A DNA stretch of 64,000 bases from Mytilus edulis. Taxonomy: Eukaryota. Position 1 is the first letter of the stretch; each line of letters starts with the position of its first letter. Shown piece by piece: positions 56,268 to 64,000 of the stretch. The stretch is taken from assembly GCF_963676685.1 (NCBI RefSeq), contig NC_092348.1:19654001-19718000 (forward strand), given 5' to 3'. A model generated the notes under the pieces. That model was given only the letters and a program-made list of their open reading frames with translations, did no database searches and was not told where the DNA came from. The position numbers were made by a program, and so were the translations under genes.

Positions 56268-57796
56268 CCTTAGGGGGTCAATTGACTATTTTGGTCATAC
56301 TGACTTGTTTTTAGTTCTTACTTTGCTGTACATTATTGCTGTTTACAGTTTATCTCTATCTATAATAATATAATAACAAAAAAACAGCAAAATTTCCTCA
56401 AAATTACCAATTCAGGGGCAGCAACCTAACAACCGATTATCCGATTCGACTGAAAATTCCAGGGCAGATAGATCGTGGCCTGATCAACAATTTCCTGTCA
56501 GATTTGCTCTAAATGCTTTGGTTTTTGAGTTATAAGATAAAAACGGCATTTTACCCCCATGTTCTATTTTTAGCCATGGCGGCCATCTTGGTTTGTTGGC
56601 CGAGTTACGGGACACATTTTTTAAACTAGATACCCCAATGATGATTATGGCTAAGTTTGGTTAAATTTGGCACAGTAGTTTCAGAGGAGAAGATTTTTCT
56701 AAAAGATTATTAAGATTTACGAAAAATGGTTAAAAATTGACTATAAAGGGCAATAACTCCTAAAGTGGTCAACTGACCATTTTGGTCATGTTGACTTATT
56801 TGTAGATCTTATATTGCTGAACATTATTGCTGTTTACAGTTTATCTCTACCTATAATAATATTTAAGATAATAACCAAAAACATCAAAATTTCCTTAAAA
56901 TTACCATTTCAGGGGCAGCAACCCAATAACAAAATGTCCGATTCATCTGAAAATTTCAGGGCAAATAGATCTTCTTGACCTGATGAACAATTTAACCCTG
57001 TCAGATTTGCTCTCAATGCTTTGGTTTTTGAGTTATAAGCCAAAAACTGCATTTTACCCCCTGTTCTATTTTTAGCCATGGCGGCCATCTTGTTTGGTTG
57101 GCCGGGTCACCGGACACATTTTTTAAACTAGATACCCCAATGATGATTATGGCCAAGTTTGGTTAAATTTGGCCCAGTAGTTTAAGAGGAGAAGATTTTT
57201 CTAAAAGACTACTAAGATTTACGAAAAATGGTTAAAAATTGACTATAAAGGGCAATAACTCCTAAAGTGGTCAACTGACCATTTTGGTCATGTTGACTTA
57301 TTTGTAGATCTTACTTTGTTGAACATTATTGCTGTTCACAGTTTATCTCTATCTATAATAATATTCAAGATAATAACCAAAAACAGCAAAAATTCCTTAA
57401 AATTACCATTTCAGGGGCAGCAACCCAACAACGAAATGTCCTATTCATCTGAAAATTTCAGGGCAGATAGATCTTGACCTGATGAACAACATTACCAAGT
57501 GTCAGATTTGCTCTAAATGCTTTGGTTTTTGAGTTATAAGCCAAAAACTGCATTTTACCCCTATGTTCTATTTTTAGCCATGGCGGCCATCTTGGTTGGT
57601 TGGCCGGGTCACTGGACACATTTTTTAAACTAGATACCCCAATGATGATTGTGGCCAAGTTTGGTTAAATTTGGCGCAGTAGTTTCAGAGGAGAAGATTT
57701 TTGTAAAAGTTAACGACGGACGACGACGACGGACGACGGACGCCGGACGCCAAGTGATGAGAAAAGCTCACTTGGCCTTTCGGCCAGGTGAGCTAA
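56268..57796 (+). repeat. HINE/Helentron-like element: 502-bp tandem array (3 units), GACG microsatellite, terminal hairpin
   Basis: GCCATGGCGGCCATCTTG at 56573, 57075 and 57577. (GAC/GACG)n at 57714-57750. AGCTCACTTGGCC tttc GGCCAGGTGAGCT terminal palindrome. Confidence 0.85.
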
Positions 57797-58320
57797 TAAT
57801 AATAATAATAATATTGTTTAATTATGTATAAATCTGTATTTGATTTAGCAACAATTATCTGATGATTGAGGGTCATTGAATGGTGGTTCGGTTTCACTGA
57901 CTTCATTAAAGACCCAAAATGAATACCTGTAAAATAAATATAGTTTGTTTTTTATTATTTGTTTTAACAAGAGACCAATGTGTCTTCAAAAAATGGTTCT
58001 TCGACAGACTCTGAAGGACAGTATATTTCATATTTTTCATTTCAATCGGTCTTTCCTTTTTTTCAACTGTGCATCAGAAGGAAAACATCGTTTCGTATTA
58101 TCGACTGGTGACCCCATGACTTTCTCTACATTACGGATTTACAACGGAAGTCACTTGATCCTTATTGATCATTTGAGAAGTAATATTGCATTATCTTAAT
58201 TGAAACTTTTCATGTTAACATTGAATTTGTATTACTGTACATGTATATTACCATAAATAGAATGGTACCTGCAGTAAGGATCATCTAAGAATAATATTTT
58301 CGTTTTTATTGCAATATATG

Positions 58321-59785
58321 ATGGCTTCGTTGGGTAATATTCCTGTTGACTTTCAACAAAGTTTAGTTAGATTCTCGACATCTTTGTATAAAGGATTGAA
58401 CAAAACAGAGAGCTTGTGTGTATCACCTTATAGAATCACTGCTGCGTTTCTAATGTTGATGATTGGAGCAGGCGGACGATCAAAGCAGCAACTTTCAACA
58501 GCTATTTTCAAAAATAGTTTATTGTCCGACGAGGAGAATTTGAAATATTACAAGTCAATGCATACTTATATAGTTGAGAGAGATGGAATTAATGTTGTTT
58601 TGGCAAGTGCTAATAAGTTGTTCGTAAACGATCAATTTACAGTATTGCAAAATGTCCGAGAAAATGCAAAACAGTATTTTGGAGCCGATATTAGTGTTAA
58701 GGACTTTACAAAACCCAAGACATCTGCATTTGAAATAAATAGGTGGGTATTAAAAAAGACTTACGGCAAAATAAAGGATTTGATTAAAGAAAATTGGTTT
58801 GACAAAAACACTATAATGTTCATTATAAATGTTATATATTTTAAAGCCACGTGGTGGATGCCATTTTCTCCAAGTTCCACGAGAAAACAAACATTTTACC
58901 TTCCGAACAACAAAAAGATTGAAGTTGATATGATGCATAACAAGAAAGTATTTACCCTCTCGTATCGAGGTTTGGACTTCTCTGCAATAGCGTTACCATT
59001 CAAGGGTGGCTACTTTGATATGGTCTTCATTTTACCAGATGAGACGGATGGACTCCCAAATATTGAAGAGAAGATAACTCCTGACTTTCTAAACGATATA
59101 TCTACTGGATTTAAAAATTCGGTTTATAATATTGCCATTCCAAAATTTAAGTTGGAGTCCGAGTGTGATTTAACAAAAGAATTACCTAAACTTGGAGTGA
59201 AAGACATTTTTGGATTTAAAGCTAATTTTTCAGATCTAATTATTGAGAGAACACAAGGCTTAGGCAGCAACCATTTGATTTTCTGGGGGGGGGGGGGGGG
59301 GGGGGGGGGGCTATGGTTTTTTTTTTCTGGACAAATTTTTTTTTCGCCTGCGGCGATAAACAACCTATTTTTTTCGCGACAAGTCGAAAACAATTTTTTT
59401 CTTTCAATTTTAGCATTACATATAGTGGCAGCTGAGGGTGAAACAAACAATTTTTTTTTCTCAGAATCAAAAACAAATTATTTTTTTCTCCAAAAACTGG
59501 AAACAAACTTTTTTTTCCAAAAAAAACCATAGCCCCCCCCCCCCCCCCCCCCCCCCAGAAAATCAAATGGTTGCTGCCTTACACATCAAGGTTGCTGTGC
59601 ATAAGGCTGTTTTCAACATGAACGAAGCAGGTATAGAGGGGGCAGCTGTTACAGCAGTTCGCTTTGGTTTAAGATTGAGGACAATACCAAGGTTCACTGC
59701 AGATGGACCATTTTTATATTATATTAGAGATATCAAATCTGGTCTTATTTTGTTTATTGGTCGATTCTACCCAAAAGTCAAATAG
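58321..59785 (+). pseudogene. Serpin paralogue 5 disrupted by a MITE; restores to 381 aa, RCL EAGIEGAAVTAVRFGLR-LRT
   Basis: Removing 59263-59581 joins ...RTQGL-HIKVAVHKAVF... in frame with no other lesion. Confidence 0.9.
59263..59578. mobile_element. PIF/Harbinger-type MITE, 316 bp, TTA TSD
   Basis: TIR GGCAGCAACCATTTGATTTTCT(G)26CTATGGTTTTTTTT versus a complement with (C)24. TTA at 59260-59262 and 59579-59581. Confidence 0.9.
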
Positions 59786-60758
59786 TTGAAGTTTTTTGAA
59801 AAACGACAGTATGGTAATTAGTAAACAACATTGTATACTAGCATTTAAAGAATGGCTCTGATGGCTATTATATAAAATAAATTGTTCTAATAAAATTTGG
59901 TAGTGGCTATTTGACCGGCACCGGAAAAATAGCAAATTTGCTATTTAGCCGGCACTGAATAAAACTGTTGATTGGTGGGATTAGTAGAGAATAAGCCGAA
60001 TAATAATTTAAATAATTTAAAATCATTTTATCAAAATATCAAGCATTAATAAAAATACAGTACAATCAAAAATAAAATATTGAAAATGTTCATGAATAAA
60101 TGATTTATAACTTTATCATGTTAACTTTATAATATTAATCAAAAGCATGAACACACATTTGTATATCACAGTGTAGATACTATTCTGTACGCTATCCGGA
60201 AGTCGCGATTTTCGAAGCGATAACTTTTTGGATCACATTTTAAATTTAATGGGTATACTGAATTAAACGGTAAGTTGATCATCTGTACATTGCTTAATGA
60301 TTAATTCAGCCGACATCGATATTCTCAAATGGTTTAGAATTAAATTCCGCACATTCATTATTCGTATCTTTGCCTTAATCAAGAGATTTTCAAGTGCATC
60401 ACTAAGAAAAATCAATCGGCGAACCTAAAAACAATCTTTTTATCCTCTTAGTGTACAAATTAAAGTAAAAACCTGACTTAATTAACTAAATGAAGTATAT
60501 TTCAAGTGGTGGTAAAAGTTTCAACCAGATCCTTGAAGCCAGAAATAAGAAAATTACACTTGTTTGAATTTCTCACTATACGATCAGTCTCGCTTGTATA
60601 TTTTAAAACTGTATGATCAGTCTTTATGTCACTGTATTCTAGTGGTGATTTCAAAGTTATTTACGATACATTAGAAGGTGGCATTTTTCTAAATAACACA
60701 ACAATATTTCAATACATTCACATCCTGAAAACTTATGAAACATGTTTTAGCTTGATAG

Positions 60759-61070
60759 TGTTGTATCTTTACCCTAAGCCCGGGTTCTCCCTATTAGGAG
60801 TAGACAACTGATACCATTCTCCCTGCCAGGAGTAGACGATGGACACCAATGGGCCACTGGTTGGATACAGCGGATGTCAGAGCCTGCGCACGCCTGCAGC
60901 GCCCTCTTCAATCTAATGGTCAACGAGGTTAGACGTTAACCACGAAGAAACAGTTAACAACGCCCGAGTAATAGGTAATTACAGTACTTAAGCCTAAGTC
61001 CTTCTATATATATAAAGTCCAGGTCGGGTCCTTTCAAGGGAAATAGTCTTTCCCCAAGACGAACACCACA
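60759..61070 (+). repeat. Putative 5' LTR of a Ty3/gypsy element
   Basis: TGTTGT...ACCACA ends, TATATAAA at ~61009, followed 4 nt later by TGG and then gag. No second LTR in the window, so the left boundary is tentative. Confidence 0.6.
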
Positions 61071-61074
61071 TTAT

Positions 61075-61092
61075 TGGTAGTGCGGGTGGTTC
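61075..61092 (+). promoter_or_regulatory. Putative primer-binding site
   Basis: TGGTAGTGCGGGTGGTTC directly after the LTR CA; only a partial match to the tRNA-iMet-type PBS TGGTAGCAGAGGATGG. Confidence 0.45.
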
Positions 61093-61523
61093 GGACACAC
61101 ATGGTGTGACCTAGTTAGCCATTTTGGTCAGGGGATTCTGACCAGGTGCAATCAAGCGTGATTGGCAGAATTAATTTGGCTATTCTGAGACTTTGCAGTT
61201 GGGATTAGGCTTAAAAGAAGAGCTTTAGAAGCGGTACCAAGCGTTGTATGATAAGTTTTTCACTGTCTGTGAAGGTTTTCAAACTTTGTTCAAGTCATTG
61301 ATTTTTTCAGATTGAGTCTCGCGTGATTTCGTGTGACAAGGTAACAGCGATACTTGAGATCAATACCGGAAGTGATTTCCGTGATTTGTTTACATATGCA
61401 ATACACATCTTTGCTATTTGTAAACGGCATTTAAATCAATAAAGACTTGTTTTTTATTTTGTTATTGTTTTGTCATTTATTTATAGTGAAAGTATCACTG
61501 AATATAGGTTAATATTCAGCACA

Positions 61524-64000
61524 ATGAGTGGGTTTAAAATCAAAATAAACTCCAGTCCGGAGTCTGTTCTCCTACATGTACCTGGCATTGGTACGGCTAC
61601 TGCTCGTAGAATTATAGTAATGAGAAATAATGGCATAACAATTACACCAGAAATATTGGCCCAAATACCATATATGAAAAAATAAAATGTCCCTTGTGTC
61701 CGATATGATTGATTTTTCTCCTTGTGAATTCAATGACATGGACAATGTTGATGTCAGGTATCAAGGTCAGCCACATGAGTCACAAGACTATGAGACAGAT
61801 ACACATGTAAAATCACACGAGGGAGGGGCAGCAAATTTTGTGTCCACACCCTTCACCCCGGGTACTATTAGACGGGAAATTGCTCATTTGCAAGAATTTA
61901 ACACCGATACACAGAGGTGGATAGACCAACACGGTTCCACACAGGCACCTGTCCAGGGGGGTGAAATTTATCAAAAACCTTATTTAAATCAACCGGTTTT
62001 TTCTGACTCGGAGATTGCCATGGATACAGTGTGGAATTCGCAGGTTGATCGCACGTCAATGAGATCCATGCCCTCATGCATTGAGGAAAATGAATATCCA
62101 ACCCAAGAGATGGACCGTTGCAGAATTTTTGAAGATAATCTGTCCTGTAGTGAGGAATCGTTACTTCCCAGCCGAACTTTACAACCAGAAGTAATTGACC
62201 CAGCATACGGACCACATTATGTAGAATATGAACCGTCAGATAAGCCAGATTTGCCAAGTCTAGATCGGTCTATGAGTATTCAGCATGATAGCACCACTAT
62301 GATAGAGGTTCAGCTGAATCAACAACCAAGGTTAGTGGGTGAACATTGTACAGAGTACGAGTCGTCAACTGCTATGAAAGAGCAACATTTCGAGAACACC
62401 CACCTCAACGACAGGTTCCAACAGAGCCAGACTAGGGAACCAATCAATCAGCGCAGTAGGTTGTTAGAAAATTCTGTCAACTATATTCAACCGCCACAAC
62501 CAACAGTTCAACTGCCTGTTGAACATACAGTCAACTTCAACCAACGTCAACAAGCTGTTCAACTACCTGTTGAACGTATCAACCAGCGTCAACAAGCTGT
62601 TCAACTACCTGTTGAACAGGTCATCAACCACAACCAACAAAGACAGCAAGCTGTTCAACTCCCTGTTGAACATAATGACAACTACCCGCGATCCAATATT
62701 AGAGCCATTCATCTACTTGGTGGCCATACAGTCACCAACACACAATCAATTCAACAATCAACCCGGCATACCATTAGCAACGTACCACATCAATCACACG
62801 GCACATCCGTGCTTAGCGGACAATTGCCTACTCAACAAGGTTTCAACAGGTCACCTCCGACTGTTGCCAACCAACCAATCAACCACAGGGCTACAGGTCA
62901 ACAACCACCTCAACCCAACATCAACAGGTCAAACCCTTTACCTGCACTTAGGTCTACACCACCCGTCAGGGAAAGGGAACCTTATCAACAACTTCCACCG
63001 ACCGCCAACAGGGCCAATCAACCACCCTGTCCCAGGTCAACAGGTCAACTACAGTCAACTAGACAACAAAACTATACCTTTCCAGTCGGTACAGCCGGAC
63101 AACAAAACAGAGTGATTGATAATCAACAACATCAACCACCGATCAGCCATCCAGTTAATACACCACATATCAACAGCCATGTTCCACCGACACAACAATT
63201 TAACAGAACAGGTCTATACCAACCTAACACCAACCAGTCAGGTTTTCAACAACCACTCAACAACACAATGGGTCAGCAGAGCAACCGCCTCAGGCCATAC
63301 ATAACCAACAGGAAGTTTACAGGCAACAACCAGTGCAACATCTCCAAAATGTTACTGCACCTATACATCAGACTCAACAGCCATTTGGAAATATACCATA
63401 TCAGCAAGGGAGGCCCTATCAGCCTTCAACAGCACCAAATATTGTACAAGGAATGACTCAATCAGGGTATTATGACACAGCTCCACACTTGCCAGTGTAC
63501 CCACAACAACAGCTGTACAATAACCGTCCACACACTCAGTTTCAGGATCAACGCAGTATGTCTAGTATTACGAGCTGCTCAAATAGTGATTCTGATTCAT
63601 CTAGTTCTACATCAGGGGTAGTGTATCGTCGGAGTCGTCATAAGAGTAGAAGCAACAAAACACACTCTAGACTCAGTATATCAAGCAGACATGTTTCACC
63701 AGTGGAGGAGGAGGCTAGTGAACACTCATCGCCACACCGAAAGAATTCAGGCAAGAAGCATGACAAAAGGAGGTCAGACAGACATGGTCAGTCGGAAACG
63801 GATGGTCACCATTCCTCAAGCAACCGTCATAGAGCGAAGCCAGCTCCAATGAAACAGGACAAGAAATTTTTCTTTTCGGTGCCTAAGAACCTTAAGTACA
63901 CAGGGAAAGGCAACTGGAAGGCATTTTACACAAAGTTCACCGGGTACGCTGAGGCTGCCGGTTGGACGGACAAACAAAAACGAGAACAGCTTTGTTGGTG
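61524..64000 (+). CDS. gag: Ty3/gypsy Gag with N-terminal helix-hairpin-helix domain, long Q/P/N-rich spacer, Ser/Arg-rich segment and capsid N-terminus; two frameshifts; runs off the window
   Basis: KINSSPESVLLHVPGIGTATARRIIVMR (HhH). +1 shift in an A6 run at ~61680 into ORF 61687. -1 shift at ~63280 into a frame open to the window end, reading VPKNLKYTGKGNWKAFYTKFTGYAEAAGWTDKQKREQLCW (gypsy-type capsid start). Confidence 0.75.

Follow-up and report, generated by a model that had tools for sequence, protein, structure and literature searches.

The window, by which we mean the whole 64,000-nucleotide stretch of Mytilus edulis DNA analysed here (C5:19654001-19718000), ends inside a mobile element. 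It contains the 5′ portion of a young Ty3/Gypsy LTR retrotransposon, the reading frame of which is broken in four places. The features of the element within the window are as follows.

60755 to 60758, forward strand: target-site duplication of 4 bp, ATAG, which recurs past the 3′ LTR outside the window
60759 to 61073, forward strand: 5′ LTR of 315 bp with TG...TA ends and 2 differences from the 3′ LTR
61075 to 61092, forward strand: primer-binding site, beginning TGG
61093 to 61523, forward strand: 5′ leader
61524 to 61721, forward strand: predicted ComEA-type (HhH)2 domain, the N-terminus of Gag (residues 1–66), with a frameshift near 61682 in the window copy
61722 to 63860, forward strand: low-complexity linker of about 720 residues, with a frameshift near 63281 in the window copy
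63861 to 64000, forward strand: start of a capsid domain of PNMA / Retrotrans_gag type, the remainder lying outside the window

Upstream of the element, between 36000 and 59800, four related genes are arranged in tandem, near 36.0, 44.8, 52.9 and 58.3 kb; from a motif in the translation of the fourth, we take it to be serpin-like. This fourth gene is interrupted at 59270-59575 by a MITE-like insertion of about 300 bp with long poly-G/poly-C inverted ends, and a tandem repeat with a unit of about 502 bp, present in three copies, occupies 56268-57850.

The original prediction for this locus was of an LTR and a primer-binding site upstream of a first open reading frame encoding, in succession, a ComEA-like helix–hairpin–helix (HhH) domain, some 700 residues of low complexity and a gypsy-type capsid. 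Each of these parts was found. The peptide that the prediction quoted begins at the ATG at 61524, the primer site follows the 5′ LTR, and the capsid is reached through a linker that passes from an acidic part to a Gln/Pro/Asn-rich part and then to a Ser/His/Lys/Arg-rich part. The expectation that gag–pol would continue downstream was borne out by extension of the contig, which located the 3′ LTR outside the window at C5:19725264-19725578, 10.5 kb downstream of the 5′ LTR. The LTR pair differs at 2 of 315 bases, ATAG is present on both flanks, and a purine run precedes the 3′ LTR. Past the window (L001, L002) lie the rest of the capsid, a zinc knuckle, protease, RT, RNase H, integrase, a PHD finger, a second open reading frame (ORF2) and the 3′ LTR, and Pfam analysis of L001 and of a second copy, L005, gives the order protease–RT–RNase H–integrase after Gag. 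Among the PDB matches listed for the RT, those to Ty3 RT rank first (E 3e-76). Two further lesions of the window copy, an in-frame stop and a frameshift in integrase, lie in this outer part, beside the two frameshifts within the window. Proteins identical across the HhH domain carry the labels Mytilus galloprovincialis and M. edulis.

The element is therefore like other Ty3/Gypsy elements (Metaviridae) with a PNMA-type capsid in its LTRs, primer site, polypurine tract and target duplication, in the order capsid–zinc knuckle–protease–RT–RNase H–integrase, and in an RT–RNase H that is nearest to Ty3 in the PDB. It is unlike them in its (HhH)2 N-terminus, its very long linker, the PHD finger after integrase, ORF2 and, in the window family, the TG...TA ends of the LTRs. 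The conserved core of ORF2 (506 residues; L005:8941 to L006:458) shows a Cys-x4-Cys...His-x4-His pattern, and a stretch of about 70 residues at the C-terminus looks beta-grasp-like by eye; ORF2 gave no Pfam match and its tail neither a Pfam nor a PDB match, and Atlas matches were below 0.9.

A search of the 1.37-Gb genome with the 53-residue HhH peptide gave 32 matches out of 66 candidates. Two of the copies found, L005 and L003, carry a single open frame of 2539 residues from the ATG (2584 codons from stop to stop), in which the HhH domain is followed by the linker of about 720 residues, capsid, zinc knuckle, protease, RT, RNase H, integrase and PHD finger. The LTRs of L005 are identical to each other, and the window copy is 97.6% identical to L005 across 8.7 kb. 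Since both copies carry the HhH domain and the capsid in one frame, the fusion does not depend on reading through breaks. The prediction had held that two single-base frameshifts must be corrected to obtain it; both are present in the window, but the intact frames need no correction. Other copies that lack the HhH domain or never have it in frame, or a downstream sequence other than gag–pol, were the findings named in advance as fatal to the proposed fusion; put to this test, the fusion stands.

The same layout is seen in related families whose HhH domains are 40–48% identical to that of the window family and whose linkers gave no tblastn alignment. A further family (L007, L008, L011 and L030-L032) is young and non-autonomous: an ORF2-like tail follows in frame on HhH, capsid, zinc knuckle and protease, and RT, RNase H and integrase are missing. 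The LTR pairs of this family are 99–100% identical in the three copies checked. Because a family that has dispensed with RT and integrase keeps the HhH–capsid part intact, the job of the HhH domain is tied to Gag. At another locus, an inverted LTR piece stands in place of much of gag (L014:1990-2170).

The match of the N-terminus to the HHH_3/ComEA pattern, on which the prediction rested, also holds. The 53 codons of the window score 27.9 bits against Pfam HHH_3 (PF12836; cut-off 27, E 2.6e-6); scores in the window family are 27.9 and 28.1 bits, the related protein P0155 reaches 33.4 bits, and all 12 aligned members match at E ≤ 0.1. A model of residues 1–68, computed from an alignment of 14 retroelement rows only, has a predicted pLDDT of 88 and pTM of 0.73. 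Its best structural match is ComEA (8dss; Z 10.2, rmsd 1.8 Å over 64 residues), followed among others by 2duy (Z 8.4) and Tex (Z 8.3), and Foldseek superimposes it on ComEA with a TM score of 0.79, at an E value no better than 0.02. An earlier model from a shallow nine-row alignment (pLDDT 64.7, no Foldseek match) was replaced by this one. In a sequence-profile search of the PDB, EEPD1 and ComEA came out on top, EEPD1 (9yi2) matching in two domains with E 5e-14. The N-terminal 65 or so residues of Gag are thus predicted to adopt a compact ComEA-type (HhH)2 fold.

The two hairpins of this fold have fared differently. At the first, xhG is found in 19 and GhG in 13 of 23 family representatives, the window family having GIG, and Lys or Arg follows at +2/+3 in 15 of them; the residue equivalent by alignment to the conserved Arg of ComEA is present in all 23. 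The second GhG hairpin, present in 19 of 20 prokaryote domains and in 3 of 4 host domains used for comparison, is missing from every one of these representatives and from all 108 database Gag matches described below; the prokaryote set is biased, since it was chosen by likeness to the Mytilus domain. In the window family a lysine after the first hairpin is missing, the domains carry little net charge, and in some copies (L041, L097) the first hairpin is eroded too. A third Gag family (L096-L099) consists of short elements, L097 being about 5 kb, with a strongly eroded HhH-like N-terminus.

Pfam HHH_3 matches number at least 128 in the genome, 150 of 169 candidates having been scored. Forty were examined, picked to span the score groups and thus not at random. 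A capsid lies downstream in 32 of these, in the same open frame in 13, and pol genes only in a further 2; the remainder comprise four host-like genes, one fragment of a known family and one unclassified locus. One host gene, L073, is EEPD1-like, as judged by eye from its two tandem domains. Most of the ComEA-like matches sampled are therefore transposon Gag and neither host nor bacterial genes. The association was also approached from the capsid side, with two sets taken from 150 listed rows each and requiring the match to start by residue 20: 90 rows with E ≤ 1e-30 and 41 rows with identity of at least 49%. An HhH domain lies within 4.5 kb upstream of the capsid in 71 of the 90 and 37 of the 41 (108 of 131 selected places) and downstream in 0 of 131. 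Among 20 capsid loci fetched for lacking an upstream match, one (L093) has a divergent HhH (41 bits, in-house profile), four have a very eroded one (11–13 bits) and 15 have none.

The layout extends well beyond this genome. Of 20 metagenome loci found by capsid pattern, nine have an upstream HhH, called in eight cases by a prokaryote-only profile and in one by a retroelement profile (controls ≤ 2.4 bits); nine of the 11 negative loci have less than 1.2 kb of upstream sequence. L038 and L042 have more than 2 kb of upstream sequence in which the profile found no HhH. Searching 1.84 billion cluster representatives with an HhH-to-capsid profile gave 814 matches at E ≤ 1e-30. Among the best 150 of these 814 Gag clusters, the HhH precedes the capsid in 108, a figure that is not a prevalence because the profile favours HhH-bearing matches; 95 of the 108 are recognised by the prokaryote-only profile, with reversed controls at or below 2.4 bits. 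The domain lies within the first 30 residues in 100 of the 108, and in 90 the capsid is less than 60% identical to any Mytilus copy fetched. Two of the thirty representatives looked up carry organism names, Mercenaria mercenaria and Pinctada imbricata. The prediction of a gypsy lineage that carries its HhH on a long tether is thus upheld as to the lineage, which is broad, but the very long tether is special to the window family: linkers in relatives among the best 150 of the 814 measure 78 to 662 residues, with a median of about 206. A scan of viral contigs found no relative, and tblastn against phages gave weak, partial matches only.

Relatives that do without the domain also exist. Of three complete Gag-Pol close relatives from an RT search, P0155 carries the HhH and P0164 (Ostrea edulis) and P0177 lack it; as L038, L042 and L094 lack it likewise, the domain is dispensable. 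In an RT–RNase H tree (50 rows, one short row dropped, quick method without bootstrap), HhH-bearing elements form two clades with SH-aLRT support of 99 each. The clade containing the window element has a PHD finger on integrase and the other has none. Both nest in a larger clade (SH-aLRT 99) with HhH-lacking members, and the tree requires at least two changes of HhH state. A capsid tree places the HhH on five unresolved deep branches, with the HhH-lacking L038 and L042 inside an HhH-bearing clade. The tree of the HhH domain itself, poorly resolved over 70 columns, returns the two lineages of the RT tree and does not separate EEPD1 from ComEA as donor. AU tests rejected neither a single retroelement origin (p 0.56) nor a grouping with EEPD1 (p 0.43). 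One old capture followed by losses is the simplest reading, not a proven one.

The HhH domain evolves under purifying selection. For three unsaturated family pairs, dN/dS is 0.15–0.17 in the HhH, 0.38–0.47 in the linker and 0.03–0.07 in the capsid; pairs involving the window's own family are largely saturated. In one additional close pair, pN/pS was 0.06/0.52 for the HhH, 0.19/0.40 for the linker and 0.02/0.46 for the capsid. In five of six near-saturated pairs pN is lower in the HhH than in the linker; in the sixth it is not. These values, with the in-frame copies, the low control scores and the consistent position upstream of the capsid, leave almost no credence for the notion that the HhH match is due to chance, a fragment of a neighbouring gene or a neutral passenger, as might be supposed from a window copy that is broken and scores barely over the HHH_3 cut-off.

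The architecture, its natural in-frame copies, the selection, the breadth across Gypsy lineages and the loss of the second hairpin can be regarded as shown with very high confidence. As to function, the reading that we prefer, and to which we give slightly less than even weight, is that the HhH faces outward and grips DNA irrespective of its sequence, so tethering the particle to host chromatin. Among solved capsids, those of PNMA2 are nearest to the capsid of the element. The N-terminal region of PNMA2 projects from the capsid as external spikes (PMC10945824, PMC9934673), and the Gag N-terminus would by analogy lie outside the shell; if Gag is uncleaved, the particle would carry on its outer face one HhH per subunit, each on a flexible arm. 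The DNA-binding patch of Vibrio ComEA is made up of the first hairpin and its lysines (PMC3879209). The isolated (HhH)2 domains of EEPD1 are described as lacking stable DNA binding, the multimer being the form that binds (PMC12988330), which is a precedent for avidity. Given this behaviour of ComEA and EEPD1, a one-hairpin domain is likely to bind weakly by itself and to be of use only when many copies act together, as a capsid allows. One hairpin would bind DNA weakly, many per capsid would bind by avidity, and the particle or pre-integration complex would so be held on chromosomes; in the PHD-bearing branch only, the integrase PHD finger might then refine the site. Gag-borne chromatin tethers are known from MLV p12 and foamy virus (PMC6021111, PMC6042332).

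Several findings weigh against a DNA grip. The second GhG is absent throughout, and in vivo, Vibrio ComEA variants from which either HhH was missing apparently no longer bound DNA (PMC3879209). The window family has no lysine after the hairpin, the domains carry little net charge, and the first hairpin is eroded in L041 and L097; the domain is dispensable in close relatives; and in one saturated pair it is conserved no better than the linker. The element's own protease, moreover, might cut the HhH off Gag. A main alternative is a protein-interaction or assembly module, self-associating or binding a host factor, that has kept the fold and lost nucleic-acid binding, an explanation that we judge unlikely but a serious contender. 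The second hairpin is remodelled in all copies, with core hydrophobic positions and the structural Arg kept, and the structural matches include PsbU and GspK, which are not known to bind DNA. (HhH)2 folds dimerise in XPF-ERCC1 (PMC12988330), and the N-terminal region of PNMA2 has a predicted dimerisation part. Such a module would, however, leave unexplained why two deep lineages have both retained the first hairpin together with the basic residues that follow it, for which structure gives no obvious reason.

Somewhat less probable still is a role in handling nucleic acid of the element itself, in which the domain, either freed by the protease or active ahead of assembly, would coat the cDNA against autointegration or aid capture of genomic RNA in the nucleus. 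BAF offers a parallel for the former, since it binds double-stranded DNA through an HhH motif and blocks autointegration (PMC3381236), but its action depends on dimerisation. The fold is common to the transcription factors Tex, SPT6 and TEFM, and a basic Ser/His/Arg stretch lies just before the capsid; on the other hand, the N-terminus is outside PNMA2-type shells, away from the genome, and a zinc-knuckle nucleocapsid is present already. We consider it very improbable that the HhH binds extracellular DNA as in bacterial competence and so helps particles to move between cells or hosts. The closest fold is that of the DNA-uptake protein ComEA, and PNMA2 capsids leave cells without an envelope (PMC9934673), but Pfam reported neither a signal peptide nor an envelope domain, the two lineages common to the HhH and RT trees fit long co-descent with the element, and nothing in the results points to a role in horizontal transfer. 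Returning to the chromatin tether, a fuller version is possible, though doubtful: an old capture of a ComEA/EEPD1-type domain, pared to one working hairpin and displayed on each capsid subunit as a multivalent DNA clamp, would with the PHD finger give a widespread Ty3/Gypsy lineage of marine invertebrates a two-stage, self-encoded route to chromatin.

The mussel domain has the predicted fold, the first GhG hairpin and the conserved Arg in common with the ComEA domain (PF12836; 8dss, 2duy), but it has lost the second GhG hairpin and is fused to a eukaryotic Gag; it stands at the N-terminal end of Gag-Pol, in a retrotransposon of an animal genome, and is not an exported or membrane-anchored DNA receptor, as a competence protein would be. 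EEPD1 (9yi2), its best PDB sequence match, described as binding DNA only as a multimer, keeps the second hairpin, unlike the retroelement HhH, and has two such domains attached to an EEP fold. There is precedent in kind for an additional domain at the N-terminus of Gag: PNMA-lineage metaviruses of vertebrate hosts also have a putative nucleic-acid-binding domain before a PNMA-type capsid, its function undemonstrated, but that domain is RRM-like whereas the mussel one is HhH (PMC11011659). The chromodomain, PHD and MBD of retrotransposons (PMC6673714), MLV p12 and foamy virus Gag are likewise captured modules proposed to steer or hold elements on chromatin, PHD fingers being called widespread on retrotransposons (PMC6673714). 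In these accounts, such modules read histone or methyl marks or nucleosomes; the HhH would instead grip the DNA backbone non-specifically, and on Gag. In the single Gypsy paper found to use the term 'helix-hairpin-helix', on CERV of Cer1, it denotes a predicted helical domain with a possible leucine zipper, in a protein separate from Gag (PMC10309623).

Full-text literature searches, with subscription journals and Repbase reports outside their scope, found no description of an HhH–Gag fusion, nor was one found in passages of PMC6238403, PMC2836005 and PMC6673714. The broad HhH-bearing variant of Ty3/Gypsy Gag is thus real and apparently undescribed. The region ahead of the metaviral capsid was called unexpectedly diverse in a 2024 survey (PMC11011659); here this poorly understood region is a recognisable, selected domain, predicted to fold, in more than 100 divergent Gag clusters. 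With HhH-lacking relatives and an HhH-keeping non-autonomous family to hand, the way in which envelope-less LTR elements gain chromatin and stay on it becomes testable with a 65-residue protein.

Raw RNA reads cover the element stretch at low depth in 30 of 30 bins in each of two runs (271 and 249 reads) and in 5 of 30 bins in a third; they could derive from any copy of the window family. At this low read depth, the element showed no splice joints. Two genes of the serpin-like cluster that were checked have almost no RNA reads, and the serpin coding stretches in the window have none in the two runs that cover all 30 bins, which argues against plain DNA carry-over as the source of the reads on the element.

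In the related Pol proteins P0220 and P0236, a macro domain precedes the protease or a CW zinc finger occupies the position of the PHD finger.
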